Source: an uncultured Synergistia bacterium (GTDB taxonomy: Bacteria > Synergistota > Synergistia > CAYRKT01). From it: 58,766 nt of DNA. Positions 3,111 through 58,325 of this stretch are shown here, in pieces. A program made the position numbers and the translations under genes. A model generated the notes under the pieces. That model was not told where the DNA came from and ran no database searches. It saw only the letters and a program-made list of their open reading frames with translations. The DNA is taken from contig CAYRKT010000002.1 of the NCBI GenBank assembly GCA_964425005.1, positions 1-58,766 of the forward strand. Reading direction: 5' to 3'. Each line of letters opens with the position of its first letter. Position 1 is the first letter of the stretch.

Positions 3111-4547
3111 CTATACCTCCTTAAGCCGACACCAGTCCTCGAAAACCCTGCGAAGCAAAACGTTGACGTCCCCCGCCCCCAGCGACACCACCAGGTCGCC
3201 CGGCATCAGGAGACCAGTAACCCCTCCAGTGTCGCAGTCAACCCCATCTAAAAGTATAATATCCCCTGCCCCTTTCCTACCATATAGGACGTCGAGGAAA
3301 AGCTCCGTCTTTGAGCCGAAGTCCTCAGGCCTCGCCTCGGAGGCGGAGAAGACGGGCAACACGAAGAGGAGGTCTGCTCCCTCCGCCAGGACCTCAGCGA
3401 ACTCAGCGGCGAACCGGGCGAAGCGGCTGAACCTGTGGGGTTGAAAGAGGACCACCAACCTCCTCCCGGGCCAGACCGACCTGGCCGTGGCCAAAGTCCT
3501 CCTGATCTCCGTGGGGTGATGGGCGTAGTCGTCCACGAAGACCACACCCCCAGCCTCGCCCACCACGGTCAGCCTCCTCTTGGCCCCGCGAAAGCCCTCG
3601 AGGGAGCCCAGCGCGCTCGACAGAGGAAGACCCATCGCCGCGACCACAGCCATCGCCGCCAGGGCGTTGAGGACGTTGTGCTCCCCGGGCACTCCGAGCC
3701 TCACCTCCCCCACGGGCGAACCGTCCGCGAGCAGGGTGAAGAGGGCGCTCCTGCCCTCCTGCCTGATCCCCACCGCTCCCAGCCTAGCGCGAGATCCCAG
3801 GGCGTAGTCCAAGAGCGCGAGGTCGGACCTGGCGCGGGAGACCTCCCCCGCGAGCCTGGAGAGCAGCGGATCGTCCCCCCAGTAGACCAAAGCCCCTCCG
3901 CGTTTGGAGTTCATGACGTAGCTCAAGAAGACCTCGTAGATCTGTCCCACGTCGCGGTAGACGTCGGCGTGATCCAGCTCCAGGTTGGTCAAGACGGAGA
4001 TGTAAGGCGAGTATTCGGCCATCTGACGGTCGCTCTCGTCGACCTCGCACACCAGGAGATCGCTGTCCCCCAGCAGCACGTTGGCGCCCCAGCTGGGCAC
4101 CTCTCCTCCCACCAGAGCCGTCAGGTCGAATCCCAGCCCCTTGAGGGCGAACGCGACCATGGAGGTGGTGGTGGTCTTGCCGTGGGTCCCGGAGACCCCT
4201 ATGGACCTCATAGCGTTGAAGACGCGCCCCAGGAAGGAGGACCTGCTCTCGACCGAAAGACCCATCCTGATGGCTGCGACCAGCTCCTCGTTGGACCTGT
4301 CGACGGCCTTGCTGAAGACCACCCTATCGCACCTCTCCAGCACCAGATGCTCGGGGGAGTGCCCCCTGTAGACCCTCACACCCCTCCTCCTCACCGCATC
4401 GGCGTAGCCGTCCTCCACGTCGACGTCGCAGCCGCTCACCTCGAATCCCCAACCCTTCAGGAGAAGGGCGAGCGCGCTCACCCCCGCACCACCCACCCCC
4501 ATCAGGTGATAGTTACCCTCGAAAGACCGAAAGAGCTCAGACCCCAC
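3111..4547 (-). CDS. murC: UDP-N-acetylmuramate--L-alanine ligase
   Basis: HLMGVGGAGVS, GTHGKTTT, EVDESD, DDYAHHPTE, FQPHR. Confidence 0.97.
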   Translation of the reverse strand: MGSELFRSFEGNYHLMGVGGAGVSALALLLKGWGFEVSGCDVDVEDGYADAVRRRGVRVYRGHSPEHLVLERCDRVVFSKAVDRSNEELVAAIRMGLSVESRSSFLGRVFNAMRSIGVSGTHGKTTTTSMVAFALKGLGFDLTALVGGEVPSWGANVLLGDSDLLVCEVDESDRQMAEYSPYISVLTNLELDHADVYRDVGQIYEVFLSYVMNSKRGGALVYWGDDPLLSRLAGEVSRARSDLALLDYALGSRARLGAVGIRQEGRSALFTLLADGSPVGEVRLGVPGEHNVLNALAAMAVVAAMGLPLSSALGSLEGFRGAKRRLTVVGEAGGVVFVDDYAHHPTEIRRTLATARSVWPGRRLVVLFQPHRFSRFARFAAEFAEVLAEGADLLFVLPVFSASEARPEDFGSKTELFLDVLYGRKGAGDIILLDGVDCDTGGVTGLLMPGDLVVSLGAGDVNVLLRRVFEDWCRLKEV

Positions 4548-5622
4548 CTGAAGCGCACCCCCAAACTATCTTCGCCGCCCTCGAAGCCGCATCGGGCACC
4601 ACCAGGGAGTAGGCCCTAAGGCCCATCTCCCGCCTGAGCCCAGGATCCAACATGTCCTTCAGGAGCGAGAGAGCCCTGTCGAAGGTGGAAGGATCCCCCT
4701 CGCGGAGGACCTCCGCCCCCCCGGCCCTCTTGACCATCAGGGCGTTCTCCAGCTGATGCCCGCCGGCGGATCCCTCCCACGGGATCAAGACCGAGGGAAG
4801 CGCGAAGGAGCAGATCTCCGCCAGGGCGCCAGCGCCAGCCCTGCTCAGCACCAGGTCTGAGGCGCAATAGAAGTCGCTCATCTCCTCCAGGAACCCCATG
4901 CACACCACGTTCCCGGGAAGCCCTCGAAGCCTCTCCTCCGGATAAGAGCCCGCCAACAGGAAGGCGACGTCCGAGAGCTCCTTCGCCAGCGAGGAGGCGA
5001 GATCCAGCAGGTAGAGGGAGCCCAGGCTGCCTCCCAGCACCCCCACGCAGAGGCGATACCCCGAAAGGCCAAGCCTCTCCTTCGTCCGAAGCTTCCCCTC
5101 CTCGTCCTCCCTCCTCATCCTCCTGATCGGCATGCCGGAGAGGACGAACTTGGGCCCCCTGTATATGGAGAGGGATTCTCGCCAGGAGAGCAACACCAGG
5201 TGGGCCAGCCTGGAGGAGAGGGAGTTGGAAAGCCCCATCCGCAGGTTCTGCTCGTGGACCAGGCATGGTACCCCCAGGGCCCTGGAGGCCACAGCGAAGG
5301 GGAACCCTATGTAGCCTCCCGTGGTGAAGACCAGATGAGGCCTGTAGCCTCGAAGGACCTCAAGGGCCTCGGCCAGGGACTTGAGGTTCCTCCACGCAGA
5401 TCGAAGGACCTCCCAGGACAACTCCCTCGGGATCCCCCTGGAGCCCACCACCTCGGGCTCTATACCCCTGGCCCTGTAGATGGAGAGCTCCAGCTCCCTG
5501 CCGCTGCAGACGAAGAGGGAGTCGAATTCTCCAAACAGATCCCGCATGGCCTCGAAGACCGCCAGGGCCGGAAGGACGTGGCCGCCCGTTCCGCCTGCCG
5601 CGAAGAGGAAGCGCCTCCTCAC
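4537..5622 (-). CDS. murG: Undecaprenyldiphospho-muramoylpentapeptide beta-N-acetylglucosaminyltransferase
   Basis: GGTGGH, HEQN, GGSLG, RAGA, HQLENA. True start is GTG 5622 (GTGA overlap with ftsW stop, SD GGAGGT); track ORF to 6138 is over-extended. Confidence 0.95.
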   Translation of the reverse strand: MRRRFLFAAGGTGGHVLPALAVFEAMRDLFGEFDSLFVCSGRELELSIYRARGIEPEVVGSRGIPRELSWEVLRSAWRNLKSLAEALEVLRGYRPHLVFTTGGYIGFPFAVASRALGVPCLVHEQNLRMGLSNSLSSRLAHLVLLSWRESLSIYRGPKFVLSGMPIRRMRREDEEGKLRTKERLGLSGYRLCVGVLGGSLGSLYLLDLASSLAKELSDVAFLLAGSYPEERLRGLPGNVVCMGFLEEMSDFYCASDLVLSRAGAGALAEICSFALPSVLIPWEGSAGGHQLENALMVKRAGGAEVLREGDPSTFDRALSLLKDMLDPGLRREMGLRAYSLVVPDAASRAAKIVWGCASGGV

Positions 5623-6770: not shown

Positions 6771-8136
6771 GGGCCTCTATCAACCTCCTCACGGCCTCCC
6801 TGAAGGCTTGTCCTCTATGGGCGTAGTTCTTGAACATGTCGAAGCTCGCGCAGGCGGGCGAGAGGAGCACCACGTCGCCGGGTTCGGCCATGGAGAAGGC
6901 CAGCTCCACCGCCTCGTCCATGTCCCTCGCGAGACGAAAGGACGAAAACCCCTCCCTCAGAAGCGCCTCGGAGATGGGCCTGGCCTCCTCCCCTATCAGG
7001 ATGGCCCCCCTGGCCCACCTCTTGACCGCCGAGGCCAGGGGGGAGTAGTCCTCCCCCTTGCCCCTGCCCCCCAGTATCACCACCTTACGCCCCTCGATGC
7101 TCCTCAGGGCCGCCACGGCGGCCGCCACGTTGGTCCCCTTGGAGTCGTCTACGAACCTCACGCCCCTGAAGGTGGAGACCTCCTCCGTCCTGTGGGGAAG
7201 AGGTTTGAACGACCTGAGCGATTCCCCGAAGCCCCCGGGGACGCCCTCCGCCAAGGCCACGGCCGCGCAGGCGTACGAGGCGTTCTCCAGGTTGTGCAGC
7301 CCCAGGAGGGGCAACTCCCCCCTGCGAAAGAGCTCCAAGACCTCGCCTTCCCTCCGAAGCAAGACCTCCTCGTCCGCCCAGAGGATCGAACCCTCCGCGT
7401 CGAGGCTGACTCCTCCCTCGGATCTCAACAGCACCGCCCTTCTGGCCCTGACGGAGGAGCCCACCCTGTGGGCCAGCTCGACGGGGTAAAGGGCCCACTC
7501 GCGGGAGATGCGGATCAGCTTGAGCTTGGCCTCCAGGTAGGCCTCGAAGGAGCCGTGCCAGTCCAGGTGATCCGGCTCCACGTTGGTGAGCACGCCCACG
7601 TCGGGCGCGAAGCTATCCGCCCAGTGGAGCTGATAGCTGCTCACCTCCCACACCACGAAGTCGTAATCGCCGGCGCAGGCGTTGATGGCCGGGTTGCCGA
7701 AGTTCCCCCCCACGAAGACCTCGCCCATGGGTTTCAAAAGATGCCCTATCAGGGCGGTGGTGGTGCTCTTGCCGTTGGTGCCCGTCACGCAGTAAAGCCT
7801 TCGGACGGGGGGGAGCAGGCGCCAAGCCAGCTCCAGCTCCCCCACCAGGGGCACCCCTCTCCTCTCGGCCTCCCTCACGGCAGCGCTCGAGGGGGAGACG
7901 CTGGAGCTCAAAACCATGAGGTCGCAGGAGAAGGCCCTCTCCGAGTGCCCACCCACCTCGAAGGCTACCCCGGCCTCCTCCAGGGAGGCCAGGTTAGCCC
8001 CATCGACCGAGGCGCTCGCCTCGCTCACGAGGACCTCGAGCCCAAGCCTGAGCTTCAGGAACAGGGCCGACGCCGTCCCGCTCTTGCCGGCCCCTACGAC
8101 GGTCACCCTCCTGACGCCTTCGAGGAAATCCCTCAT
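6760..8136 (-). CDS. murD: UDP-N-acetylmuramoyl-L-alanine--D-glutamate ligase
   Basis: GAGKSG, GTNGKSTT, EVSSYQL, DHLDWH, DDSKGTN, LSPACASFD. Start ATG 8136 overlaps the mraY stop. Confidence 0.96.
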   Translation of the reverse strand: MRDFLEGVRRVTVVGAGKSGTASALFLKLRLGLEVLVSEASASVDGANLASLEEAGVAFEVGGHSERAFSCDLMVLSSSVSPSSAAVREAERRGVPLVGELELAWRLLPPVRRLYCVTGTNGKSTTTALIGHLLKPMGEVFVGGNFGNPAINACAGDYDFVVWEVSSYQLHWADSFAPDVGVLTNVEPDHLDWHGSFEAYLEAKLKLIRISREWALYPVELAHRVGSSVRARRAVLLRSEGGVSLDAEGSILWADEEVLLRREGEVLELFRRGELPLLGLHNLENASYACAAVALAEGVPGGFGESLRSFKPLPHRTEEVSTFRGVRFVDDSKGTNVAAAVAALRSIEGRKVVILGGRGKGEDYSPLASAVKRWARGAILIGEEARPISEALLREGFSSFRLARDMDEAVELAFSMAEPGDVVLLSPACASFDMFKNYAHRGQAFREAVRRLIEAHGL

Positions 8137-40267: not shown

Positions 40268-41485
40268 CTACCTCCGAAAGAGAGCTATGTCCTTTCTGTA
40301 GAAGAGCCCATCCCCTTTGACCTCGGCCGCGAGCTCGTAGGCCTCAGCTCTCGCCTCCTCGAGGCTGTCGCCCAGCCCGACGCAGTTGACCACTCTGCCG
40401 CCGGACACAGAAAGCCCCTCCTCCCCCCTCTCGACGCCGGCGAAGAAGTAGAGCCCCTCCTCGGGGACCATCACCCTCTGACCCCTCCTCGGGCTCAAGG
40501 GGTATCCCTCAGAGGCCACCACCACGTCCACGGCGAAGCCAGAGGGGGAAGGCGACCTCGAGGGCCTTCCCTCGAAGTTGGCCGAGATCACCGATTCCAC
40601 GAAGGCCAGGGGGTCCAGGGGCACGATGACCTCCGTCTCCGGATCCCCCATGCGGACGTTGTACTCCAGGACCTTGGGCCCCTCCTCCGTGAGCATCAAG
40701 CCCACGTACAGGAAACCCCTGTAGCTCTTCCCGTCCCTCCTAAGCCCGAAGAGCGTCCTGTCGACTATCTCCTCCACGCGCGCCACCAGGCCGGGCTCCA
40801 TCCGAACCGGGGCCCAGCAACCCATGCCCCCGGTGTTGGGCCCCCTGTCCCCGTCGAAGGCCCTCTTGTAGTCCCTGGCGAAGGGGAGGAGCGCGAAACC
40901 CCTATCCCCCACCACGCATATGGCCGAAAGCTCCTCCCCGGGCAGGAACTGCTCCACCACCAGAGCCCCGGACACCCCCCTCAGCAGCTCGCCCCTCATC
41001 AACCTGGCACCCTTCTCCAGGGCCTCCCCCCTGTCCTCCAGCACCAGCACGCCCTTTCCCCCAGCCAGGGGGTCGGCCTTGAGCACGTAGGGCGGGCCGA
41101 AGCGATCCATCGCCTCCGGAAGGCCGGCGGGGTCCTCCACCACGACGAAAGGGGCTGTGGGTATCCCGTGTCTCTCCATGAACCCCTTGGCGAAGGCCTT
41201 GGAGGACTCTAGCCTAGCCGCGTCCTTGAGGGGAGCGAAGACCTTTTTCCCTCCCACGTCCGCGACCCCCGAGGCTATCACGTCCTCCGGTCCGGGCACC
41301 ACCAGGTCGAAGAGGTCCAGAGAGCCCCTCAGGAAGCCCAGGAGGTCGCCTCCCGGGTCCAGGTTTCGCCCATCCCTGGAGGTACCCCCGTTGCCGGGGG
41401 CGAAGAACACCTCGTGTCCCGCCCTCGCGAACGCCCAGCCCATGGCGTGCTCCCTTCCCCCGGAGCCGAGGATCAAAACCCTCAC
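40268..41485 (-). CDS. purD: Phosphoribosylamine--glycine ligase
   Basis: GSGGREHA, APGNGG, LAGGKGV, DYKR..DGD.GPNTGGMG, EYNVRMGDPE. Confidence 0.97.
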   Translation of the reverse strand: MRVLILGSGGREHAMGWAFARAGHEVFFAPGNGGTSRDGRNLDPGGDLLGFLRGSLDLFDLVVPGPEDVIASGVADVGGKKVFAPLKDAARLESSKAFAKGFMERHGIPTAPFVVVEDPAGLPEAMDRFGPPYVLKADPLAGGKGVLVLEDRGEALEKGARLMRGELLRGVSGALVVEQFLPGEELSAICVVGDRGFALLPFARDYKRAFDGDRGPNTGGMGCWAPVRMEPGLVARVEEIVDRTLFGLRRDGKSYRGFLYVGLMLTEEGPKVLEYNVRMGDPETEVIVPLDPLAFVESVISANFEGRPSRSPSPSGFAVDVVVASEGYPLSPRRGQRVMVPEEGLYFFAGVERGEEGLSVSGGRVVNCVGLGDSLEEARAEAYELAAEVKGDGLFYRKDIALFRR

Positions 41486-48023: not shown

Positions 48024-49685
48024 ATGAGCATGTTCTGCTACCAGTGCGAGCAGGCGGCGAAAGGCGAAGGGTGCACCTCCTACGGGGTGTGCGGGAAGGA
48101 CCCCGAGACGGCGGCCCTGCAGGACCTGCTGGTCCACCTCTCCAAGGGCATAGCCTCTTACGCCTGGGAGGCCAGGAGGCGCACGGGGGCCTTCGACCCC
48201 GAGGTGGACAGATTTCTCCTGGAGGCCCTCTTCACCACGGTGACCAACGTGAACTTCGACCCCAAACCCATAGCCGAGATGATATGGAAGGCCAGGGAGA
48301 TGCTGGAGAGGGCGAAGGAGCTCTGCGAAGGAAGCCACCTCGGCTCAACCTCTCTGCCCGAGGTGGCCCTGAAGCTTGGGGCCTTCGAGCCGGCGAGCGA
48401 CGTGCAGGGACTGGTGCGGCAGGCCCAGGAGGCCTCGATCGAGAGGAGCATAGAGAGGATGGGGGAGGTAAGGGCTGGCCTCGCCTGGATGGGGATATAT
48501 GGGCTCAAGGGCGCGGCTGCCTACGCGGACCACGCCGCCATACTGGGCAAGAGCGACCCCGAGGTGATGGGAGAGTTCCAGAGGCTTCTGAGCGAGCTAT
48601 CCCGCGAAGAGCTACCCTTGGAGGACCTCGTGAGGCTAAACCTGGAGGTGGGGGCTCTAAACCTCAGGGCGATGGAGATGCTGGACGAAGCCAACAGGAG
48701 CTACGGGGATCCCTCCCCCACCAGGGTCAGGATCACCCCCATTAGGGGTAAGGCCATCTTGGTGTCAGGACACGACCTGAGGGACCTCCACGAGCTCCTG
48801 GAGCAGACCAGGGGCAAGGGGATAAACGTCTACACCCACGGGGAGATGCTCCCCGCCCACGGGTATCCGAAGCTCAGGGCCTACCCGCACCTGGTGGGAA
48901 ACTACGGAGGAGCCTGGCAAGACCAGCAGAGGGAGTTCGACGAGTTCAAGGGGGCTATCCTGATGACCACCAACTGCCTCCAAAAGCCCAGGGAGTCCTA
49001 CAGGCACAGGATCTTCACCACCGGACTGGTGGGCTGGCCCGGAGTGAGGCACATCCCCTGGAAAGGCAACGCCAAGGACTTCTCTCCGGTGATCGAAGCA
49101 GCGCTCGCGGAGCCGGGATTCGAGGAGGACGAACCCGACAGGAGGATCTGGGTGGGGTTCGGCCACGGCTTCCTGCTATCTAAGGCCAAAGAGATCTTGG
49201 AGCTGATCGAGAGGGGCAAGGTGAGACACATATTCCTGATAGGTGGCTGCGACGGAGCCAAGCCCGGCAGGAACTACTACACGGAGCTGGCCCAAAGGGT
49301 GCCCGAGGACTGCCTCATCCTCACCCTGGCCTGCGGCAAATACCGCTTCAACAAGCTGGACTTCGGGGAGATAGATGGGCTCCCCAGGCTGATGGACGTA
49401 GGGCAGTGCAACGACGCTTACTCCGCCGTCAAGGTGGCGCTCGAGCTGTCCAAAGCCCTGGGCAAGTCGGTGAACGAAATCCCCCTGTCCCTGATCCTCT
49501 CCTGGTACGAACAGAAGGCGGTGGCCATCCTGCTCACCCTCCTGCACCTGGGGATCAAGGGCATCAGGCTAGGTCCCTCCCTTCCCGCCTTCGCCAAGCC
49601 ACCCGTCCTGGGCTTCCTGAGGGAGAGCTTCGACCTCAAACCCATCAGCACCCCGGAGGAGGACCTGAGGGATATCCTGGGCTAG
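48024..49685 (+). CDS. hcp: Hybrid cluster protein (class I spacing)
   Basis: MFCYQCEQ, C-x2-C-x8-C-x5-C, SGHDL, THGEMLPAH, TNC, GGCDG, GQCNDAY, WYEQKA; 553 aa. Confidence 0.97.
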   Translation: MSMFCYQCEQAAKGEGCTSYGVCGKDPETAALQDLLVHLSKGIASYAWEARRRTGAFDPEVDRFLLEALFTTVTNVNFDPKPIAEMIWKAREMLERAKELCEGSHLGSTSLPEVALKLGAFEPASDVQGLVRQAQEASIERSIERMGEVRAGLAWMGIYGLKGAAAYADHAAILGKSDPEVMGEFQRLLSELSREELPLEDLVRLNLEVGALNLRAMEMLDEANRSYGDPSPTRVRITPIRGKAILVSGHDLRDLHELLEQTRGKGINVYTHGEMLPAHGYPKLRAYPHLVGNYGGAWQDQQREFDEFKGAILMTTNCLQKPRESYRHRIFTTGLVGWPGVRHIPWKGNAKDFSPVIEAALAEPGFEEDEPDRRIWVGFGHGFLLSKAKEILELIERGKVRHIFLIGGCDGAKPGRNYYTELAQRVPEDCLILTLACGKYRFNKLDFGEIDGLPRLMDVGQCNDAYSAVKVALELSKALGKSVNEIPLSLILSWYEQKAVAILLTLLHLGIKGIRLGPSLPAFAKPPVLGFLRESFDLKPISTPEEDLRDILG

Positions 49686-49692
49686 GCGGATA

Positions 49693-49730
49693 GGTCGACC
49701 CGGCGCGGAGAGGCCCGCGCCGGGTCGACC
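49693..49730. terminator. 16-bp perfect hairpin between convergent hcp and HATPase genes
   Basis: GGTCGACCCGGCGCGG-agaggc-CCGCGCCGGGTCGACC; no U tract on either strand. Confidence 0.6.
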
Positions 49731-49740
49731 CGCACGGCGC

Positions 49741-50322
49741 TCAGACGTGGATCGATCCCGAAGCCTTAACCCTCGCCTCCGAGGCCAGGCGCTCGATCTC
49801 CTCCAGGGAGCGGCGAAGGAGGGACAGGACCTCCGGGTGATCGTAGAGTTCGTCCCCCAACTCTTCCCTGATCTCGGAGGTGTCCAAGACGAACTCCTCC
49901 GAGTCGACGCGCCGAACGAACCTGAAGTCCACGTCCCTGTGGGCGCATATGCCCACCATCAGGGTGGAGACCAGATCCCCAAGGGGAGGCCTGTCCACGT
50001 GATCGAGGGAGAAACGAGCCCGCACCTCCGTCCCCTCGCCGGGCCTGGAGTTGAGTTCGAAGCTTCCGGCGCAGTGCTCCGCCGAGGCCCTGAGCAGAGG
50101 AAGGCCAAGGCCTACCCCTATCCTCTTCTTCCTCCCGGTGTAAAAGGGGTCCAAGGCCTTACAGGCCTCCTCCTCCGACATCCCGCAGCCGTCGTCCTTG
50201 ACGGCTATCTCCAGGTAGCCGGAACTGTGGTCCTCGAAGACCTCCACGGTTATGCGCTTAGCCCCAGCGGAGGCGCTGTTCTCTATGAGGTCCAGCACGT
50301 GCATGGACAGGTCCCTCATCAT
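49741..50322 (-). CDS. HATPase_c (histidine-kinase-like ATPase) of the hydrogenase-associated type
   Basis: MHVLDLIENS, DDGCGM, DPFYT, GLGLPL, RPPLGDL; no HisKA or receiver domain. Confidence 0.85.
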   Translation of the reverse strand: MMRDLSMHVLDLIENSASAGAKRITVEVFEDHSSGYLEIAVKDDGCGMSEEEACKALDPFYTGRKKRIGVGLGLPLLRASAEHCAGSFELNSRPGEGTEVRARFSLDHVDRPPLGDLVSTLMVGICAHRDVDFRFVRRVDSEEFVLDTSEIREELGDELYDHPEVLSLLRRSLEEIERLASEARVKASGSIHV

Positions 50323-50344
50323 CAAGGCGGAGACCACCCCCGCT

Positions 50345-50698
50345 CTAGGACCTAAGCCCCCTTATCCCCATGGAGTAGAGCCTTCCCACCGCCTCGAAAG
50401 CGGGAAGCGGCGTCCTTATGAGGGTGAGCCCCCTCTCCCTGGCCTTCTCCACCACCGAGGGCTCCACAGAGGCGCCGTCGGCCACCACCAGCGCGGAGGC
50501 CTCCACCAGCAACGCCACAGCCACGGCGTTTATGTGGCTCTGCACGGTGACCCACAAGACGCCGGGAGCACCCCTCTTCATCACGTCGCTCATGAGGTCC
50601 GAGGCTATGCCGTAGGAGACCTCGACGGAGCCCTCTTCGCCACCGGCCAGGACCTCCCCCTCTAAGGCCCTCAACAACTCGGTCAGCTCGAGCTTCAA
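50345..50698 (-). CDS. DRTGG-domain protein
   Basis: SDLMSDV, WVTVQSHINAVAVA, AFEAVGRLY. Confidence 0.85.
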   Translation of the reverse strand: MKLELTELLRALEGEVLAGGEEGSVEVSYGIASDLMSDVMKRGAPGVLWVTVQSHINAVAVALLVEASALVVADGASVEPSVVEKARERGLTLIRTPLPAFEAVGRLYSMGIRGLRS

Positions 50699-50716
50699 AC
50701 CGACACCCCCATGGAC

Positions 50717-52039
50717 CTACTTCTCGAGCGGAAGCTTTATCATCTCCAGTATCTCCCTCGTCAGATCGCCCACCCTGCGCCTCTGCTCGTAGACGCAGTC
50801 GGTGACCTTGCCCTGTCCTCTCACCACGTCCTCCGCCAGCGCCCTGCAGGAGGGCCTCCCGCAGAAGCCGCAGTTTATCCCGGGCAACCTGTCGTGGACT
50901 ATCTGGAGCTGGTGGAGCTTCTCCATCGACTCCCGGAGGTCCGAGGACAGAGGCAGCCTCGGCCTGGCCCGGATGGGAAACTCCAGCGAGGTGAAACCCC
51001 TGGCGTGGAGCTCCTCCAGGAGGGATAACCTCTCCTCGGAGGGATTCCAGTCGGGCACCCGGTGGGGCACGGTCTGGGAGGCTATGAAGCGAGACTCACC
51101 CGCGAGTATCCCCCCCACGCACCCCTTGTCGCAGACCCTGCCCTCCACGTAGTCGACCCCTCTGAGCTTGCCCAGCTCCACCTCCTCCACCACCTCCATC
51201 ACGTTCCTCATCCCCGAGACCACCACCGCCCTGAAGGGCTCCCCGTTGCCGAAGATCCTCCAGAACATGGAGAGGTGGTCGGACTCACCCCCCAGCACCG
51301 CCCACCTGATCCACCGGGAGAAGTCGGAGGACGGGAGGCTGTCGCCGACGCTGGGCCTCTTGGCCAGGTTCACTATATCCCTGTAGACCCAGTTCATCCC
51401 CACCGCGTAAGACATGTGGCTGGCCCTTCTGCCCTCCGGATACTTGGCCATGCCGATCTTCGCCGGGCAGGGGGAGACGAAGACGAAGGGCTTCCCTCCC
51501 ACCCCCCTGGACTCCGAGAGGGCAGCGGCCACCTCTAGGGGATTCTCCACCGGAGTGAGCCTGGAGACCAACGAGGGATACTTGACCTGGACCAGCCTCA
51601 AGACGGCGGGACAGTAGACGGATATCATCGGCCTGGACTCCCTCGGAACGCTCAGGACGTGCTTCACCGTGGCGAAGGCCACCAGATCATAGGCTATCTC
51701 CATCTCCTCTATCAAGTCCTTGTAGCCCAGGGCGCCCATCAAGGAGGAGACCTCCCTGGGGTCCTGGAGGTGGGCGAACTGGGTGTACATCACGGGATCG
51801 CAGATCAGCACTCTGTCGGAGGTGCTGTTCCTCAGTATCTCCCACTCGTCCTCCTCCACCGCTATGAAGTCAGAACAAACCCTCTTGCACTCCCCGCAGT
51901 TTATGCACAGCTCGGGGATGATCTTCAAAAACCCGCTGTACCACCTCATGGCCTCGGTGGGACAGGCCTTTATGCAGTTTATCCCCTCCTTGCAGTACTT
52001 GCCCACAGGCCTAATCACGACACCGTGTCTGTCGGTCAA
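50717..52039 (-). CDS. [FeFe]-hydrogenase-like Fe-S protein (ferredoxin + degenerate H-domain + C-terminal FeS domain), likely sensory
   Basis: C..G..C...CP and CINCGEC...C; P1 SVYCPA, P2 SPCPAK, P3 EGRVCDKGCVGG; LPGINCGFCGRPSC...C. Confidence 0.8.
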   Translation of the reverse strand: MTDRHGVVIRPVGKYCKEGINCIKACPTEAMRWYSGFLKIIPELCINCGECKRVCSDFIAVEEDEWEILRNSTSDRVLICDPVMYTQFAHLQDPREVSSLMGALGYKDLIEEMEIAYDLVAFATVKHVLSVPRESRPMISVYCPAVLRLVQVKYPSLVSRLTPVENPLEVAAALSESRGVGGKPFVFVSPCPAKIGMAKYPEGRRASHMSYAVGMNWVYRDIVNLAKRPSVGDSLPSSDFSRWIRWAVLGGESDHLSMFWRIFGNGEPFRAVVVSGMRNVMEVVEEVELGKLRGVDYVEGRVCDKGCVGGILAGESRFIASQTVPHRVPDWNPSEERLSLLEELHARGFTSLEFPIRARPRLPLSSDLRESMEKLHQLQIVHDRLPGINCGFCGRPSCRALAEDVVRGQGKVTDCVYEQRRRVGDLTREILEMIKLPLEK

Positions 52040-52054
52040 AGCGACCTAACCCCC

Positions 52055-52498
52055 CTACCCCTCCATAATCCTGACCGAGGCCCAGAGCTTCGTCCCCCGG
52101 CCGACCTCGCTCTCGATGCGCATCTCGTCGGAGTTCTTCTTTATGTTGGGAAGGCCCATCCCCGCCCCGAACCCCAGCTCCCTTATGTGGTCGGGCGCCG
52201 TGGAGTACCCCTCCTTCATGGCCAGCTCTATGTCCTCTATGCCCGGGCCGTCGTCCTCAGCCAGTATAACTATCTCGTCAGGGTAGACCAAAGCCTTCAA
52301 GGTCCCTCCCCCCGCGTGGATCACCAGGTTCATCTCCGCCTCGTAGGCTATGACGGCAACCCGCCGGTATATCTCCGGCGAGAGGCCCAGCATCTTGAGG
52401 ACTTCCTTTATCTGGGTGGAGGCGAGTCCAGCGCCGACGAAATCCCCACCCTTGACGTCGAACTCCACGGAGTAGACCAGCTTCTTGGAGGAGGACAT
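52055..52498 (-). CDS. RsbT-like anti-sigma Ser/Thr kinase (HATPase_c)
   Basis: YEAEMNLVIHAGGG, DDGPGIEDIELAMKEGYST, GAGMGLPN. Confidence 0.9.
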   Translation of the reverse strand: MSSSKKLVYSVEFDVKGGDFVGAGLASTQIKEVLKMLGLSPEIYRRVAVIAYEAEMNLVIHAGGGTLKALVYPDEIVILAEDDGPGIEDIELAMKEGYSTAPDHIRELGFGAGMGLPNIKKNSDEMRIESEVGRGTKLWASVRIMEG

Positions 52499-52510
52499 GC
52501 CCTTTAAGAG

Positions 52511-52879
52511 CTAAAACACCCTATCCCTGCACACCAAGCAGGGCGAAAGCCCCTCGGCGTAGAGCCTTCCACACGCCTCGAACATGGTCATGGGCGTGAG
52601 GAGCAAGGGCACGCCCAGAGCGGAAGCCGACCTCACCACGTCCTCCGAGGGGACCTTACCCCTCACGAACAGGACGGCGGGCACGTCCAGCATGTGCACA
52701 GTCCTCATCAGCTGGATGTGCGTGAGGCCGGTTATCAACAGGGTTCCAGCGCAGGCGAAGGCCAGGATGTCGCTCAGCAGGTCACAGGCGTAGGCGTTGG
52801 GGACAGCTATGGAATCCAGCTTGTCCTCGCAACACAGCACCTTGGCCCCTACCAATTCCCTCACCGTAGAGAGCAACAA
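52511..52879 (-). CDS. DRTGG-domain protein
   Basis: CDLLSDIL, LITGL, FVRGK, MFEACGRLY. Confidence 0.87.
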   Translation of the reverse strand: MLLSTVRELVGAKVLCCEDKLDSIAVPNAYACDLLSDILAFACAGTLLITGLTHIQLMRTVHMLDVPAVLFVRGKVPSEDVVRSASALGVPLLLTPMTMFEACGRLYAEGLSPCLVCRDRVF

Positions 52880-53030: not shown

Positions 53031-53059
53031 TTGACTGGGCCTCTCGGGGCGGATAAAAT
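53031..53059 (+). promoter_or_regulatory. sigma70-type promoter of the T-box/lysW operon
   Basis: TTGACT-17 bp-TAAAAT. Confidence 0.85.
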
Positions 53060-53084
53060 CCTCTCACGAAAGCCGAACAAGCCC

Positions 53085-53337
53085 GGCGATGACCGAGGGA
53101 GGGTCTTTCCCAGAAGCCCAACAGAGAGGGGGCTCCACCGGCTGAGAGGGCCCCTGGGGTGGGGGTTAGATCCAAAGCCCTCGCGAGCCTCGGCCGAAAG
53201 GGTTCTCCCGGAGTAGGCCGCGGGGGGCTCCCGTTAAAGGGCCGACGAGGGGAAGAGGGGGGACGCAAGGGTTTCTTCTCTTCCACTAGGGTGGTACCGC
53301 GGGCCGAAAGCTCGTCCCTAGAGGGACGAGCTTTTTT
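53085..53337 (+). ncRNA. T-box riboswitch (transcriptional), probable Lys (AAA) specifier
   Basis: K-turn GGC-GAU-GA/GA-GCC, AG bulge CAGAGAG, GCUGAG distal loop, stem II with GAA/AGUA S-turn, CCGUUA box, stem III, AGGGUGGUACCGCG (53288-53301), terminator. Confidence 0.92.
53310..53337 (+). terminator. T-box attenuator terminator
   Basis: GCTCGTCCC-TAGA-GGGACGAGC-TTTTTT; its 5' strand is shared with the antiterminator. Confidence 0.9.
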
Positions 53338-53378
53338 GTTTAGGTCGACCCAGCGCGAGGAGGTGTTCTGAGGTGGAG

Positions 53379-53555
53379 ATGACGAGGATCGAGGCGATGT
53401 GCGAGGTGTGTGGAGGGGAACTGGAGATCGGGTCCGGCGTGGAGCTGGGCGAGATAGTGGTATGCTCCGACTGCGGGACGGAGCTGGAGGTGGTCTCGTT
53501 GGATCCTGTGGTCCTGGAGAGGGCCCCCGAGGTCCAGGAGGACTGGGGGGAGTAA
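53379..53555 (+). CDS. lysW: Amino-group carrier protein LysW
   Basis: CEVC...CSDC zinc ribbon, GEIV.C..CG.ELEV, acidic, C-terminal EDWGE. Confidence 0.96.
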   Translation: MTRIEAMCEVCGGELEIGSGVELGEIVVCSDCGTELEVVSLDPVVLERAPEVQEDWGE

Positions 53556-53561
53556 GGGGGC

Positions 53562-54410
53562 ATGAGGCCCTCGCTGGTGGTCCTAAACGACGTCTTCTCC
53601 TTCGAGACCAGGCTGCTCCTGGAGGCAGCCGACTCGGTCGGCGTGAGCTGCAGGACCGTGGAGGTCTCCTCGGGCCTCTGGTTCGACCAGCTGGACCCCG
53701 CGCTTCCCTGTTGGAACCTCATCTCGTCGCCGGTGGCCAGGGCTGCGGTGTCCTCCTCCCTTCGCGGGCGAGGGCTTAAGCCCTTGAACCTCGCGTTAGC
53801 CGAAGGGAGCGCCGTCGACGTGGCCTCTACCCTGCACGACCTAAGCCTCGAGGGCCTCACCAGCGAGGTCTTCCTGCTCTTCCGCGAGCCCCAGGTCAAG
53901 GAGCTCATCGCCCAGGGGAGGTTGAGGTACCCCTTCTGGATAAGAGGGAGCAGGCGAGGGAGGGGGGACATCAGGACCCTGGTCAGGAGCGAGGCCGCCC
54001 TGGAGGCGGTGCTGGAGCACCGGGAACACCTGGTCGACGAGCCCTTCGTGGTCCAGGTCCACCCCGAGGCGGACGCCATGGCCAGGCTGACCATCATAGG
54101 GAGCAGGAGGTTCTGGAGCCAGGGGGCGATATCCCCCAGCGGCAGACATGCTCTAGCGCCGTGCGACGAGACGGAAGAGCTCTCCGACATCGCAGCGAGG
54201 TTGTGCCGATACCTGCGGGACAGGTTCGGGACCCCACTCTGGGCCCAGTTCGACCTGCTCATCTCGCGAGGAGGAAGGGGATTTTGGGTCTTCGACCTCT
54301 CGGATCTGCCCGAGCTGATGCCCCTAAAGGATAGGAGGGCTGAGCTGGTGGAGGCTCTGGCCTCGGTCGTCGAGGAGGTGATGGCCGATGGAGGAGGGCA
54401 AACCCTCTAA
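53562..54410 (+). CDS. Highly diverged LysX/RimK-like ATP-grasp protein (probable pseudo-enzyme)
   Basis: Position right after lysW; E.RLLLEAA..G, EAVLEHRE, FDL..S..G, PEL resemble LysX; the DK, KP..GSWG, NT.RG and EVN motifs are absent. Confidence 0.7.
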   Translation: MRPSLVVLNDVFSFETRLLLEAADSVGVSCRTVEVSSGLWFDQLDPALPCWNLISSPVARAAVSSSLRGRGLKPLNLALAEGSAVDVASTLHDLSLEGLTSEVFLLFREPQVKELIAQGRLRYPFWIRGSRRGRGDIRTLVRSEAALEAVLEHREHLVDEPFVVQVHPEADAMARLTIIGSRRFWSQGAISPSGRHALAPCDETEELSDIAARLCRYLRDRFGTPLWAQFDLLISRGGRGFWVFDLSDLPELMPLKDRRAELVEALASVVEEVMADGGGQTL

Positions 54411-54501
54411 ACGCTCGGTCAGCGCGTCGTCGAGGACGTTCGAGGGAGGGCCGGGACCAGGGCGTGCTGGTCCCTAGGGGGTCTTCTTGCGCCCTCGTCC
54501 C

Positions 54502-54536
54502 GGCCCGCAGGCTTCAGCTTGCGGGCCTCGTCTTTT
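54502..54536 (+). terminator. Possible intercistronic terminator/attenuator hairpin
   Basis: GGCCCGCAGGC-TTCA-GCTTGCGGGCC followed by TCGTCTTTT. Confidence 0.4.
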
Positions 54537-54551
54537 CGGAGGTGAGCGGGG

Positions 54552-55295
54552 TTGAACGAGGTGACCTTGGAGGGCGAGATAGTCGAGATAGGACCGGATC
54601 GCATAAGGGTCAGGGGCGTGGACATAGAGGAGCTCATAGAGGGCTGGAGCTACCCGGAGGTCTTTTGGTTTCTGCTCACCGGCAGGAGGCTGAGCTCGAG
54701 GGAGAGGAGGATGCTCGAGGCCATACTGGTGGCCATGTGCGACCACGGCCCAACGCCTCCCAGCACCCAGGCGGCCAGGCTCGTGGCCTCCACCGGCTCC
54801 CCCATGCACGCGGCCCTGGCGGCAGGGCTCTTGGGCTTCGGAGATCACCACGCCGGGGCCATAGAGCTGGCCATGAGGGTGCTCCAGGAGGCGGTGCGAT
54901 CTGCGGAGCTCGGCAGAGACGAGCTCAAAGGGACGGCGGAGAGGCTCGTGGAGGACTTCCTGGACAGAGGGGAAAGGGTGCCGGGCTTCGGACACAGGTA
55001 CCACAGGAGGGATCCCAGACCCCCTGCCCTGGTCAGGTTGGCCGAGAGGCTCTCCATGGTGGGACCCCACCTGAGGCTCGCCCTGGAGATGGAGGAGGTC
55101 CTCCTGTCCAGGAAGGGCATAAGGATGAACATCGACGGGGCGAGCGGGGCGATCCTGAGCGACATGGGGCTCTCGTGGCGCGTAGGCAGAGGGGTCTTCG
55201 CCCTGGGAAGGATGTCGGGCCTGATAGCGGAGGTTATGGTGGAGATATCGTGCTACAAGCCGTTCAGGAAGTTCCACGAGATAAAGGCCAGTTGA
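54552..55295 (+). CDS. Citrate synthase-fold protein (short citryl-CoA lyase / archaeal citrate synthase-like)
   Basis: 247 aa; DHGPTPPSTQAARL, GDHHAGAIE, PGFGH, DPR, MNIDG (His-His-Asp triad intact); TTG after SD GGAGGTG. Confidence 0.9.
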   Translation: MNEVTLEGEIVEIGPDRIRVRGVDIEELIEGWSYPEVFWFLLTGRRLSSRERRMLEAILVAMCDHGPTPPSTQAARLVASTGSPMHAALAAGLLGFGDHHAGAIELAMRVLQEAVRSAELGRDELKGTAERLVEDFLDRGERVPGFGHRYHRRDPRPPALVRLAERLSMVGPHLRLALEMEEVLLSRKGIRMNIDGASGAILSDMGLSWRVGRGVFALGRMSGLIAEVMVEISCYKPFRKFHEIKAS

Positions 55296-55315
55296 ACGAG
55301 GAGGTGCCAGGGAAC

Positions 55316-56344
55316 TTGAAGGTGGCTGTATTCGGAGCGTCCGGGTTCGTGGGAGGAGAGCTCTTGAGGCTCATAGCCCTCCATCCGCAGATGGAGCTCT
55401 CGGCGGCGTCCTCCAACACCTTCGCCGGGGAGATGGTCTGGACGAGGCACCCGCACCTCAGGCCCGTATACCCCTCCTTGAAGTTCTGCGCGCCCGAGGA
55501 GGCCATTGGAGCGGACTTCGACCTGGCCTTCCTGGCCCTGGAGCACGGGAGGTCCGCCGAGGTCGCGGGGAAGATCCACGACAGCGGCAGGCTCGTGGTG
55601 GATCTGAGCGCAGACCTCAGGCTCAAGGACCCCGAGGCCTACAGGAGGTGGTACGGCAGGAATCACCCAAGGCCGGACCTCCTCTCCAGGGCCGTCTACG
55701 GGCTTCCAGAGCTGCACCGCGAGGAGCTCAAGGGGGCGACTTTGGCCTCCGGGGTGGGCTGCAACGCCACCGCCGTGAACCTGGCGCTCAAGCCCCTCAA
55801 GGGCCTCCTTCGGGAGGTCGTGGCCGACGTGAGGGCTGGCTCTTCCGAGGGAGGAGCTCGTCCCAGCGAGGGCTCCCATCACCCCATAAGGAGCAGGGCC
55901 CTCAGGCTCTACTCCGTGGGGAAGCACAGGCACATGGCCGAGGTGTGCCAGGAGATGGAGCTCCCAGAGGAGGCTATATCCTTCTCCGTCACGGCGGTGG
56001 AGCTGGTGAGGGGGGTTCAGGCGGTGGTCAGGTGCAGGCTGAGCGAGCGCCTGACCGAGAAGGAGCTGTGGGGGCTCTTCAGGAACGCCTACAAGGGAAG
56101 CCCCTTCGTCTCCCTGTGCCCCGCCAACCCACCCCACCTACGACTGCCGGACCCCAGGTGGGTCACGGGCAGCAACCACGCCATGATAGGCTTCGTCCAG
56201 GAGGGGGAAGATCGGGTGGTGGTGGTCTCGGTGCTGGACAACCTCGTCAAGGGCTCCGCCGGGACGGCCGTGGCCTGCGCCAACCTGATGGTGGGCCTGC
56301 CGGAGGAGACCGGCCTGAACCAAAGCCCCATATTCCCTGTATGA
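55316..56344 (+). CDS. lysY: [LysW]-aminoadipyl/glutamyl-phosphate reductase (LysY/ArgC family)
   Basis: GASGFVGGELLRL, DLSADLR, AVYGLPE, GCNAT, GSSEGG, DNLVKGSAG; TTG 55316 after SD GAGGAGGTG. Confidence 0.92.
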   Translation: MKVAVFGASGFVGGELLRLIALHPQMELSAASSNTFAGEMVWTRHPHLRPVYPSLKFCAPEEAIGADFDLAFLALEHGRSAEVAGKIHDSGRLVVDLSADLRLKDPEAYRRWYGRNHPRPDLLSRAVYGLPELHREELKGATLASGVGCNATAVNLALKPLKGLLREVVADVRAGSSEGGARPSEGSHHPIRSRALRLYSVGKHRHMAEVCQEMELPEEAISFSVTAVELVRGVQAVVRCRLSERLTEKELWGLFRNAYKGSPFVSLCPANPPHLRLPDPRWVTGSNHAMIGFVQEGEDRVVVVSVLDNLVKGSAGTAVACANLMVGLPEETGLNQSPIFPV

Positions 56345-56352
56345 AGGAGGCG

Positions 56353-57168
56353 ATGGGGGTGCTGGTGGTCAAGATAGGCGGGGGAAGGGGGAACAGGCTG
56401 GACGAGCTCTGCAAGGAGGTCAAAGCCCTCTGGGAAGAGGGCGAGAGGCTGGTGCTGGTCCACGGGGTGAGCGACGCCATGGACGCCCGCTCGGCGGAGC
56501 TCGGCCTGGAGCCCAGGTACCTCGTGAGCCCCAGCGGGTTCAGGAGCAGGTTCGTCGGGGAGAGGGAGAGGGACGTCTACCTGGGCGTTTGCCTCGAGGT
56601 CGGCGCGAGGATCTGCTCCACCCTGCACGCCATGGGGGTCAGGGCCGTCGCCCTCTGGGGAGGTAGCGGAGCCCTCGCCGAGGGAGAGAGGAAGGAGGCG
56701 CTCCGCTACGTGGAGAACGGCAAGGTCAAGGTGGCCAAGGGCAACTGGAGCGGGGTGGTGAGGTCCGTGAACGCCAGGGTGATCGAGGTCCTGCTGGAGG
56801 GGGGCTTTCTGCCGGTGGTCTCCCCCGTGGCCGTGACGCCGGAGGGATTGCCCCTCAACGTGGACGGCGACAGGATGGCAGCGGCCATCGCCTCGGCCCT
56901 GAGGGCCGAGGCCCTGGTGATCCTCTCCAACGTCCCCGGGCTCCTGGAGCGCCTGGAAGACCCAGGGAGCCTGGTCAGGAGGATACCCTTCGAGGACCTG
57001 GAGGACTACGACGGCCTCGCCAAGGGGAACATGAAGAGAAAGCTATTGGCCGCGAGGGAGGCCTTGGAGGGCGGGGTGGAGAAGGTGATCATCTCGGACA
57101 GCAGGGTGGAAAGACCGATAGGGTCCGCCCTGGCGGGAGGTGGGACCTGGATATGTCGAGCTTTCTAG
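56353..57168 (+). CDS. lysZ: [LysW]-aminoadipate/glutamate kinase (LysZ/ArgB family)
   Basis: VVKIGG, LVHG, SPSGFRSR, NVDGDRMAA, LSNVPGLL, GNMKRKL. Confidence 0.92.
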   Translation: MGVLVVKIGGGRGNRLDELCKEVKALWEEGERLVLVHGVSDAMDARSAELGLEPRYLVSPSGFRSRFVGERERDVYLGVCLEVGARICSTLHAMGVRAVALWGGSGALAEGERKEALRYVENGKVKVAKGNWSGVVRSVNARVIEVLLEGGFLPVVSPVAVTPEGLPLNVDGDRMAAAIASALRAEALVILSNVPGLLERLEDPGSLVRRIPFEDLEDYDGLAKGNMKRKLLAAREALEGGVEKVIISDSRVERPIGSALAGGGTWICRAF

Positions 57169-58325
57169 ATATAGAATCGCGCTTCGGACCCGGCATAACC
57201 GCCACCAGGGAGGTCTGCCTGGTGAGGGGAGAGGGGTCGTGGGCCTTCGACGAGTCCGGGAGAAGGTACCTGGACTTCAGCATGGCCCACGGATCGGTGG
57301 CCCTAGGACACGCCCATCCAGCCGTGGCATCGGCGATGAAGAGGGCGCTCGAGGAGGGGATCTTGAACTGCGGGATGGGCTTCTCCTCCCCCTTCAGGGC
57401 CAGGTTGCTCGAGAGGCTTTGTCAGGGTCTGGGAGGCAAGTTCCGGGGCTTTCTCGCCAACTCGGGCGCGGAGGCGATAGAGACCGCCATAAAGCTGTGC
57501 GCCCTAAAGAGGCCCGGCAGGAAGAGGTTCGTGGCCCTCAGGAGGTCCTTCCACGGCAGGACCCTGGGGGCTTCGTCCCTTACCTTCAACCCCAACTACA
57601 AGAGGGGGTTGGAGCACCTCCTGCTCGAGGTGGACTTCATCAGACCCATCGAGGAGGACCTGGACAGGGTCGACGAGGGGGTGGCCGCGGTCTTCGTAGA
57701 GCCGGTCCAGGGGGAGGGCGGCGTATATCCCCTGCCCCCCGACTTCCTCAGGGCCCTCAGGTCCCGCTGCGACGAGGTGGGTTCCCTGCTGGTGGCCGAC
57801 GAGGTCCAGTGCGGCTTCTTCAGGTGCGGTTCTCTGGCCCTGTCCGTCGAGGACGGCATATCCCCCCACGTGGTCTGCCTGGCCAAGGGGATGGCGAACG
57901 GCATCCCCATAGGGGCGTGCCTGTGGAGGGAGGAGCTAGGCCCCCTACCCCCCAAGGTCCACGGGACCACCTACGGCGGAAACCCGCTGGTCTGCGCCGT
58001 GGCCCTCGCCGTACTGGACGTAGTCGAGGAGGAGCGCCTGGGCGAAAGGGCCACCAGGATGGGGCGAGGGCTCATCTCCCTGATCGAGGAGGCCAGGCAC
58101 CCCCGCGTCAAGGAGGTAAGGGGGAGAGGACTCCTGGTTGGGGTGGAGCTCACAGGGCCAGTCGCGGAGGAGGTGGTCAGATCCCTCCAGGGGAAGGGAG
58201 TCCTGGCGCTCACCACCTCCAACAGGTCGGTGGTTAGGTTCATGCCGTCCCTCCTGGTCTCCGAGGAGGAGCTCGAGCTCGCCGCCTCCGCCCTGCTCAG
58301 CGCCCTCGACGAGTTGGAGCGATGA
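57153..58325 (+). CDS. lysJ: [LysW]-aminoadipate-semialdehyde transaminase (LysJ/ArgD, class III PLP)
   Basis: YLDF, LGHAHP, NSGAEAIE, SFHGRT, EPVQGEGG, DEVQ, LAKG, HGTTYGGNP. Confidence 0.92.
   Translation: MSSFLDIESRFGPGITATREVCLVRGEGSWAFDESGRRYLDFSMAHGSVALGHAHPAVASAMKRALEEGILNCGMGFSSPFRARLLERLCQGLGGKFRGFLANSGAEAIETAIKLCALKRPGRKRFVALRRSFHGRTLGASSLTFNPNYKRGLEHLLLEVDFIRPIEEDLDRVDEGVAAVFVEPVQGEGGVYPLPPDFLRALRSRCDEVGSLLVADEVQCGFFRCGSLALSVEDGISPHVVCLAKGMANGIPIGACLWREELGPLPPKVHGTTYGGNPLVCAVALAVLDVVEEERLGERATRMGRGLISLIEEARHPRVKEVRGRGLLVGVELTGPVAEEVVRSLQGKGVLALTTSNRSVVRFMPSLLVSEEELELAASALLSALDELER

Follow-up and report, generated by a model that had tools for sequence, protein, structure and literature searches.

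A highly eroded LysX homologue behind lysW in an uncultured Synergistia bacterium: a probable pseudoenzyme of the lysine carrier-protein pathway

LysX, an ATP-grasp enzyme of the RimK family, joins 2-aminoadipate to the C-terminal Glu of the carrier protein LysW, and the LysW route to lysine is thought to need it absolutely for carrier loading. The stretch of DNA analysed here (58,766 nucleotides of contig CAYRKT010000002.1, from an uncultured Synergistia bacterium; referred to below as the window) includes a lysine operon in which the gene following lysW (53562-54410 on the + strand, ATG start, 282 amino acids) encodes a protein that we call X. Sequence comparison identifies X as a real LysX homologue, extremely diverged and only just detectable as such. 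Most of the residues required of a ligase are replaced, and the protein is nevertheless under purifying selection. We lean towards the view that X derives from LysX, is no longer a canonical ATP-dependent ligase and has been retained in a non-catalytic role connected with LysW, while a gene elsewhere in the genome encodes the ligase itself.

A LysX slot is thus occupied by a protein shorn of most of the ligase machinery, yet conserved, and this is observed in two sister lineages. If X is inactive, it would have either an accessory, LysW-binding role or imply an unknown way of charging LysW, and it would be a clear-cut bacterial case of an ATP-grasp pseudoenzyme. An active X would mark a minimal or alternative set of residues for ATP-grasp ligation. 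Catalytically inactive relatives of ATP-grasp enzymes exist, such as the TTL-like domain of TTLL12; these come from eukaryotes and form part of the tubulin-ligase branch. X resembles the TTLL12 type in having the fold of an enzyme family, replaced catalytic residues and a conserved, presumably functional sequence, its own inactivity being presumed from those replacements. A literature search found no report of an inactive LysX or ArgX in the carrier-protein pathway. There is also a practical consequence: family models miss X entirely, and pathway reconstructions will therefore score these genomes as lacking a complete lysine pathway.

Identification of X as a LysX homologue

The canonical lysX genes used for comparison were those lying between lysW and lysY in loci of Synergistota, Thermus, Entotheonella and Bathyarchaeia. 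Comparison of X with 15 canonical LysX sequences using hhalign gave a probability of 96.7% (E 3.4e-10) over residues 4-237 of X, at 23% identity, and tblastn aligned X with Synergistota LysX at 27-28% identity over residues 15-157. X shares with the known LysX and ArgX enzymes this region of homology, its length (282 compared with 280-281 amino acids) and its slot after lysW. The structures of these enzymes are those of Thermus thermophilus (1UC8, 1UC9 and 3VPD), of Sulfolobus tokodaii ArgX (3VPB and 3VPC) and of Thermococcus kodakarensis (5K2M).

Unlike LysX and ArgX, X fails every curated family model. No Pfam family matches at E<=0.01, and this includes the ATP-grasp and RimK families; canonical LysX neighbours carry PF22626 (LysX_preATP_grasp) and PF08443 (RimK), and most also carry PF02955. 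TIGR00768 scores X at 17.1 bits (E 0.0028), over the N-terminal 165 residues only, against a cut-off of 143 bits. Hidden Markov models of LysX give it 8-19 bits and their own members more than 400. None of the family or defence models is passed by X, and a phmmer search of the Protein Data Bank (PDB) returned nothing relevant.

X is similarly isolated in sequence collections. A word-indexed search of 5.8 billion proteins retrieved only two orthologues, 98% and 81% identical, and an exhaustive profile search of 1.84 billion representative proteins retrieved only X itself, with no relative outside its own species group. Scanning contigs with LysZ gave no close genome (<=49%), and scanning metagenomes with a LysY alignment gave only 41% relatives. 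An AlphaFold2 model of X built on a three-sequence alignment had a predicted local distance difference test score (pLDDT) of 43 and is not usable. A second model, built with the LysX alignment, reached a pLDDT of 58 and left the C-terminus unresolved; its top fold matches are ArgX and LysX (template-modelling score 0.64-0.67), a result which is not independent of the LysX alignment from which the model was made.

Changes in the catalytic core

X was mapped onto Thermus LysX (PDB 3VPD/1UC8, whose numbering is used for the canonical enzyme) both by hhalign and by a multiple alignment that included X', a degenerate LysX from a sister lineage described below. The reference motifs are CGDKWATS, VVLKPVIGSWGRL, LEHKE, YIQEYV, HWITNTARGG, AVDLFES and LVNEVNHTMEF, and those cited in the preliminary description of this gene, made from the sequence alone, agree with them. 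The replacements which it listed are all found at 53562-54410: DK becomes DV (D88-K89 to D86-V87), KP-GSWG becomes RG-RGRG (K129-P130 to R128-G129, and the G133-S-W-G-R lid to R132-G-R-G-D), QEY becomes QVH (Q169-E170-Y to Q165-V166-H167), the TNTARGG loop is deleted (HWITNTARGG is shortened to SPSGRH) and EVN becomes DLS (E249-V-N251 to D245-L-S247). What it described as preserved is likewise seen, namely LEHRE for the LEHKE helix, PEL for MEF, a length of 282 amino acids and an intact frame.

The mapping adds further losses. R55 is L53 in X, R194 is A189, and D178 is lost, being aligned with M173 by hhalign and with a gap in the multiple alignment; R10, E13 and W199/T201/N202 of canonical LysX are also missing. 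In 37 canonical LysX from bacteria and archaea, the ATP-phosphate lysines K89 and K129 never vary, and neither do the GSWGR lid and the hinge Q-E (100% conservation); at these places X reads V87, R128, RGRGD and Q165-V166. When the 58 positions at least 95% conserved in the same 37 sequences are taken as a near-invariant set, X retains 16 and has changed 42. N76, Y123-P124, the LEH(K/R)E helix, Q165, R175 (R180 in Thermus) and D231 (D237 in Thermus, and Glu in P0002, the 81% orthologue) are among the features that X still shares with LysX and ArgX.

The magnesium ligands deserve separate mention. In the placement that we prefer for the C-terminal region, D237/E249/N251 correspond to D231/D245/S247, which are chemically similar and not identical. 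This placement requires an insertion of only 2-3 residues, preserves the strand-turn-strand hairpin, emerges once the sister-lineage protein is added to the alignment and agrees with strands 227-235 and 240-242 of the AlphaFold2 model with pLDDT 58; it is preferred for these reasons. The alternative, in which GGRGFWVFDL is set on GGGVVAVDL (obtained with MAFFT when the sister protein is omitted and with hhalign in global mode), was rejected since it needs an insertion of 17-20 residues and loses the second Mg-ligand strand.

The amino-acid substrate site, to which R55, R194 and the HWITNTARGG loop belong, is altered as well. A five-residue signature, F-I-T-NS, describes the specificity of LysX (Shi et al.; PMC12998189), and the known signatures are F-I-T-NS, I-Y-V-GF and Y-I-T-NA (PMC12998189). 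None of the signature residues (positions 182/192/203/258-259) is retained in X, which has T177, P254 and L255 at Thermus positions 182, 258 and 259, the assignment of 192 and 203 depending on where the loop deletion is placed. An exception to the general loss is R180, equivalent to R173 of T. kodakarensis LysX/ArgX and R189 of RimK, the Arg holding the C-terminal Glu of the carrier (PMC10375531): the residue aligned with it, R175, is conserved in all three X sequences. The lid region of X contains four Arg, and its three Gly are kept. These three Gly, together with R128, Q165, R175, D231, D245 and S247, are conserved in the 81% orthologue (with the D231 to E exchange already mentioned).

The proposal that the chemistry has been lost therefore holds in part. 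It stands for K89 and the adenine-hinge Glu, for the Gly-rich and TNTARGG loops and for R55, and less well for R128, R175, D231, D245 and S247, which are conservative replacements or identities. With its catalytic residues replaced and purifying selection acting on it (see below), X has the features by which pseudoenzymes are recognised, and it is probably inactive.

The pattern can be read in another way, the main alternative, which we consider rather unlikely although it deserves attention: X might still be the LysW:2-aminoadipate ligase, with a rebuilt ATP-grasp site in which Arg stands for the strand Lys, Asp and Ser for Glu and Asn, and an Arg/Gly segment for the lid. Its fast divergence would then be a lineage-specific adaptation and not a loss of function. 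X is the only RimK-like gene of the operon, in the exact ancestral position after lysW and in a unit led by a T-box, and the residues just listed as kept in the 81% orthologue would be those of the remodelled site. Against this, Val replaces both K89 and E170, radical changes at positions invariant in 37 LysX. Moreover, in the absence of R10, E13, R55, R194, W199/T201/N202 and the whole amino-acid loop, canonical binding of aminoadipate would not be possible, and X fits none of the three specificity signatures.

The same residues allow a third interpretation, a new biochemical role in which the remnant acidic and Arg-rich pocket would bind another nucleotide, a phosphorylated compound or, as feedback, lysine, X being a sensor or another enzyme and not a partner of LysW. 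The pocket indeed looks remodelled and not randomised (an acidic D/D/S triad, a lid with four Arg, no signature residues), and the protein sequence is under purifying selection. No particular ligand is indicated, however, no family or defence model matches X, and a link to LysW is favoured by the tight lysW-X unit, which a T-box and a terminator-like hairpin enclose. We consider such a role improbable.

Erosion and selection

In canonical lineages, the identity of LysX follows that of LysY (r 0.82), which provides an expectation for any pair of genomes. Window X shows 22-28% identity with Synergistota LysX compared with the 48-52% predicted from LysY (z -4 to -5). By this sequence-based measure, the erosion of X is far beyond what divergence alone would give.

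Selection was assessed from non-synonymous (dN) and synonymous (dS) divergence between X and its 81% orthologue on contig L002, and the analysis thus rests on two diverged X sequences only. This pair gave dS 0.57 and dN 0.118, hence dN/dS 0.21, compared with 0.05 for lysW and 0.075 for ccl, the citryl-CoA-lyase-like gene downstream (dS 0.45-0.57 across the compared genes). About 69 non-synonymous differences were counted where about 250 would be expected under neutrality. The two sequences differ by one in-frame codon indel, and there are no stops. The frame is intact in the window, in L001 (a 33-kb contig, 98% identical), in L002 and in a 43-kb contig at 47x depth from one of the hot-spring metagenomes in which the organism is present. 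Indels seen in low-coverage strain fragments are only intergenic, and these fragments add little. The dN of X is 3-5 times that of its neighbours. Purifying selection acts on X, relaxed 3-4 times relative to neighbouring genes.

A further alternative is decay. X could be a degenerating pseudogene, or an open reading frame (ORF) whose sole use is to couple translation along the operon, and its raised dN would fit. The sister lineage would fit too: its 5-kb cluster shows few non-synonymous differences, and X' accounts for 4 of them. No transcript was seen for lysW-X in metatranscriptome run X16, where no contig covers these genes, a result that is uninformative for expression. A dN/dS of 0.21 at dS 0.57 rejects neutrality, however, and no copy has a stop or a frameshift. 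X' has 269 open codons in a genome of 35% GC, for which the chance probability is 3e-9. The GC content at third codon positions (GC3) of X is 0.855, and that of adjoining genes 0.85-0.90; its ribosome-binding site is also normal, with AAGGGGG preceding the start ATG, which lies 6 nt after the lysW stop codon. Taken together, dN/dS, the intact frames and the GC3 value imply that X is not a pseudogene, and we regard decay as very improbable. The preliminary description had reached the same opinion and had proposed comparing dN/dS across orthologues; that comparison, and the presence of a second degenerate copy in the equivalent slot of the sister lineage, bear it out, with neither neutral evolution nor frameshifts being observed.

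The 314-amino-acid antisense ORF which overlaps X (53318-54262, - strand) is a high-GC artefact and the + frame is the coding one, since GC3 of X matches that of its neighbours.

A degenerate LysX in the sister lineage

The closest LysY in the protein database, at 60% identity, belongs to GCA_054025675.1, a genome of 35% GC. In a neighbour-joining tree of concatenated LysY, LysZ and LysJ, the window and this genome (locus L047) are sisters in 90% of 200 bootstraps, and the pair is sister to Synergistota. The genome encodes X', a degenerate LysX of 269 amino acids, between lysW and lysY (L047:9172-9981; also in L048 and L049; proteins P0243/P0244). The gene order is lysW, X', lysY-Z-J-K behind a lysine T-box. 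Its relation to LysX is clear from hhalign (probability 99%, E 4e-18, 76 bits), with only a weak match to PF22626 in Pfam.

X' has lost K129 (to Ile) and the Gly-rich loop, carries Glu for D237 and Lys for both E249 and N251, and lacks the D178/R180 hairpin through a 17-residue deletion. On its sequence, X' clearly could not be an ATP-grasp ligase. Like X, it retains 16 of the 58 near-invariant positions. Estimating dN/dS for X' is uninformative with only 5 substitutions.

X and X' thus share the slot between lysW and lysY behind a lysine T-box, a LysX ancestry and the number of retained positions, and they occur in sister lineages. They differ in what has been lost. X' keeps QEY, HW..N, R55 and E13, which are all lost in X; its Mg-ligand positions read K/K and its K129 position Ile, and it deletes the D178/R180 hairpin where X instead deletes the TNTARGG loop. 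The operon of X' is also without ccl and lies in a genome of low GC content. The two proteins have diverged far faster than LysW, LysY, LysZ and LysJ: their identity is 22% compared with an expected 54% (z -6.3), and BLASTP gives a single weak local match, the only segment still aligned being the ALEAVLEHRE helix. The near-invariant positions kept by both number 5, where 4.4 would be expected by chance.

A canonical LysX is present in Synergistota relatives (L050, Thermosynergistes; L053; and others). In the more basal L051 (GCA_001443005.1), two RimK-type LysX paralogues (3129-3965 and 4129-5004) flank lysW. This pair could possibly serve, by analogy, as a model for an ancestral redundancy that let one copy degenerate.

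Possible function of X and the missing ligase

The scenario that we favour is as follows. X would descend from LysX, hold the ancestral slot and have been released from the constraints of ligation chemistry. A RimK-family paralogue at another place in the genome, already possessed or acquired by the common ancestor of the two lineages, would act as the second ligase; the operon copy of LysX would then have been freed from catalytic constraint, and both descendants would have kept it for another reason. Its non-catalytic job might be binding the acidic tail of LysW or handing LysW to a partner, and candidate elements for a contact with LysW are R175, the Arg-rich loop 128-136 and the ALEAVLEHRE helix. 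This agrees with the preliminary proposal of a non-catalytic protein kept by selection, which might act as a scaffold, a regulatory subunit or a sensor.

Several observations support this reading. The pathway needs charged LysW, and LysW (with its EDWGE tail), LysY, LysZ and LysJ are strongly conserved. Since X' is clearly unable to ligate, the sister lineage must have another ligase; since the two lineages are sisters and both have an aberrant LysX, parsimony would extend this second ligase to the window lineage. With a dead X' in the equivalent slot, the clade evidently manages without a catalytic LysX at this locus, which speaks against X as the active ligase. Paralogues are a plausible source, given the two RimK-type genes flanking lysW in L051. 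Direct action of LysZ on the C-terminal Glu of LysW itself, without any ligase, was considered and dropped because LysW would be consumed.

A number of points weigh on the other side. Neither the 58.8-kb window nor the 6 kb that L001 adds to it contains a second LysX-like gene; across the window, L001 and L047-L049, the only other ATP-grasp match is PurD (40268-41485). With no second LysX within about 65 kb, X may be the sole candidate for an essential step. That the step is indispensable and that lysW, lysY, lysZ and lysJ are under strong purifying selection count in favour of X as the active enzyme. R128, R175, D231, D245 and S247 are conservative at five of the most universal ATP-grasp positions, and chance retention of five such positions is about 5e-5 by composition, a rough figure since alignment favours matches. 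The kept positions of X and X' overlap no more than chance would have it, and give no sign of a shared retained surface; this would fit lineage-specific functions such as the new role discussed above. Both AlphaFold2 models are of low confidence, and both LysW binding by X and its expression are predicted from sequence.

More broadly, and more tentatively, X and X' could represent a previously unrecognised class of LysX-derived, non-ligating LysW partners in the clade sister to Synergistota, or else X would charge LysW without the canonical Lys/Glu/Asn set. Were such a class real, LysW would be charged by a relocated or non-orthologous ligase and the pathway would have an accessory, non-catalytic component.

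The lysine operon

A large part of the aminoadipate route to lysine is encoded together at this locus, in the order lysW-X-(ccl)-lysY-Z-J. LysW (53373-53555, +; 60 amino acids, C-terminus EDWGE) matches PF21344 (E 3e-18) and TIGR01206 (76.5 bits, cut-off 53.2). X is followed by ccl (54552-55295, +), a citryl-CoA-lyase-like, short citrate-synthase-family gene (PF00285, E 2.5e-43; NF004866, 289 bits, cut-off 245), then by lysY, encoding the ArgC-family [LysW]-aminoadipyl-phosphate reductase (55292-56344, +; TIGR01850, 338.7 bits; start taken from the 350-amino-acid call in L001, P0123), lysZ, the [LysW]-aminoadipate kinase gene (56341-57168, +; NF010659, 289.6 bits, cut-off 223; the 275-amino-acid call is that of L001), and lysJ, a class-III aminotransferase gene (57153-58325, +; PF00202, E 4e-88, and LysJ/ArgD models). 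L001 extends the operon with lysK, an HD protein gene, two pairs of aconitase large and small subunit genes and an isocitrate-dehydrogenase-family (Iso_dh) gene; enzymes of the last two kinds are required by the aminoadipate route.

The ccl gene is an insertion in the lysine operon of the window lineage only, being absent from the operons of the sister lineage and of Synergistota. No HMGL-type homocitrate synthase gene was seen in the 10 kb downstream on L001; the ccl product could conceivably make homocitrate. The ccl product was also considered as a partner of X, by analogy with citryl-CoA synthetase and lyase; this was dropped, since X resembles LysX, not SucC, and ccl is missing from the sister lineage. 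As a separate observation on carrier genes, Thermus loci have two adjacent lysW-like frames upstream of lysX (L009:7586-7729 and 7894-8049; L011:7503-7655 and 7820-7975).

Regulatory elements

Directly upstream of lysW, between a promoter-like site and a terminator hairpin, lies a T-box leader RNA (53080-53322, +). It matches the full RF00230 model (1-219) with 65.7 bits (E 2e-13), below the gathering score of 93. All the T-box elements are found (AGAGA, GNUGA, AGUA, CCGUUA and UGGUACCGCG). AAA at 53174-53176 (+), followed by G, is read as a lysine specifier codon. The terminator (53306-53335, +), a hairpin of 13 pairs followed by the T-run TTGTTTAGGT, overlaps the 3' side of the T-box antiterminator. 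The promoter candidate upstream of the leader, TTGACT-17-TAAAAT (53031-53059, +), is sigma-70-like by consensus match only (10/12); promoter-type sites number 2 compared with 0.1 expected in shuffles.

T-boxes precede lysW also in the sister lineage (L047:8618-8904) and in two Synergistota (L050:73-308 and L053:3418-3658). Their scores in the four lineages are 50-66 bits, all under the Rfam gathering score, and AAA-G occurs in all four at the equivalent place, immediately ahead of the 3' strand of the helix at the base of Stem I. The lysine operon of the window clade and of Synergistota thus appears to be controlled by uncharged tRNA-Lys and not by a leader peptide or a lysine riboswitch. With a T-box and its AAA specifier before lysW, the layout of the DNA is predicted to place lysW and X together in a unit induced by uncharged tRNA-Lys.

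A terminator-like hairpin with a T-run lies between X and ccl (54502-54527, +; 11 pairs, 9 of them G-C). It is retained in L002, with changed letters in stem and loop and a longer T-run, and the 141-nt spacer containing it (54411-54551) folds with a z of -2.6. The hairpin may end the lysW-X transcript or attenuate read-through into ccl-lysYZJK, which may make lysW-X the tighter expression unit in the window lineage.

Surrounding genes

Upstream of the lysine operon and divergent from it is a cluster of HATPase_c, DRTGG and Fe-hydrogenase-large-subunit-like/FeS genes (49741-52879, -), adjoined by a gene for a hybrid-cluster protein (48024-49685); an Rrf2 regulator and a ferredoxin gene occur further upstream on L001. 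From its gene content, the cluster around 48024-52879 looks like a redox or nitrosative-stress module. The window also encodes RuvB, SpoIID, Pur enzymes and a V-type ATPase subunit, which mark the organism as a bacterium. Finally, a contig from DNA run X3 with the very high depth of 808 connects 57568 with 57785 within lysJ, omitting 216 nt; this contig is probably an aminotransferase fragment of another organism or an assembly chimera.

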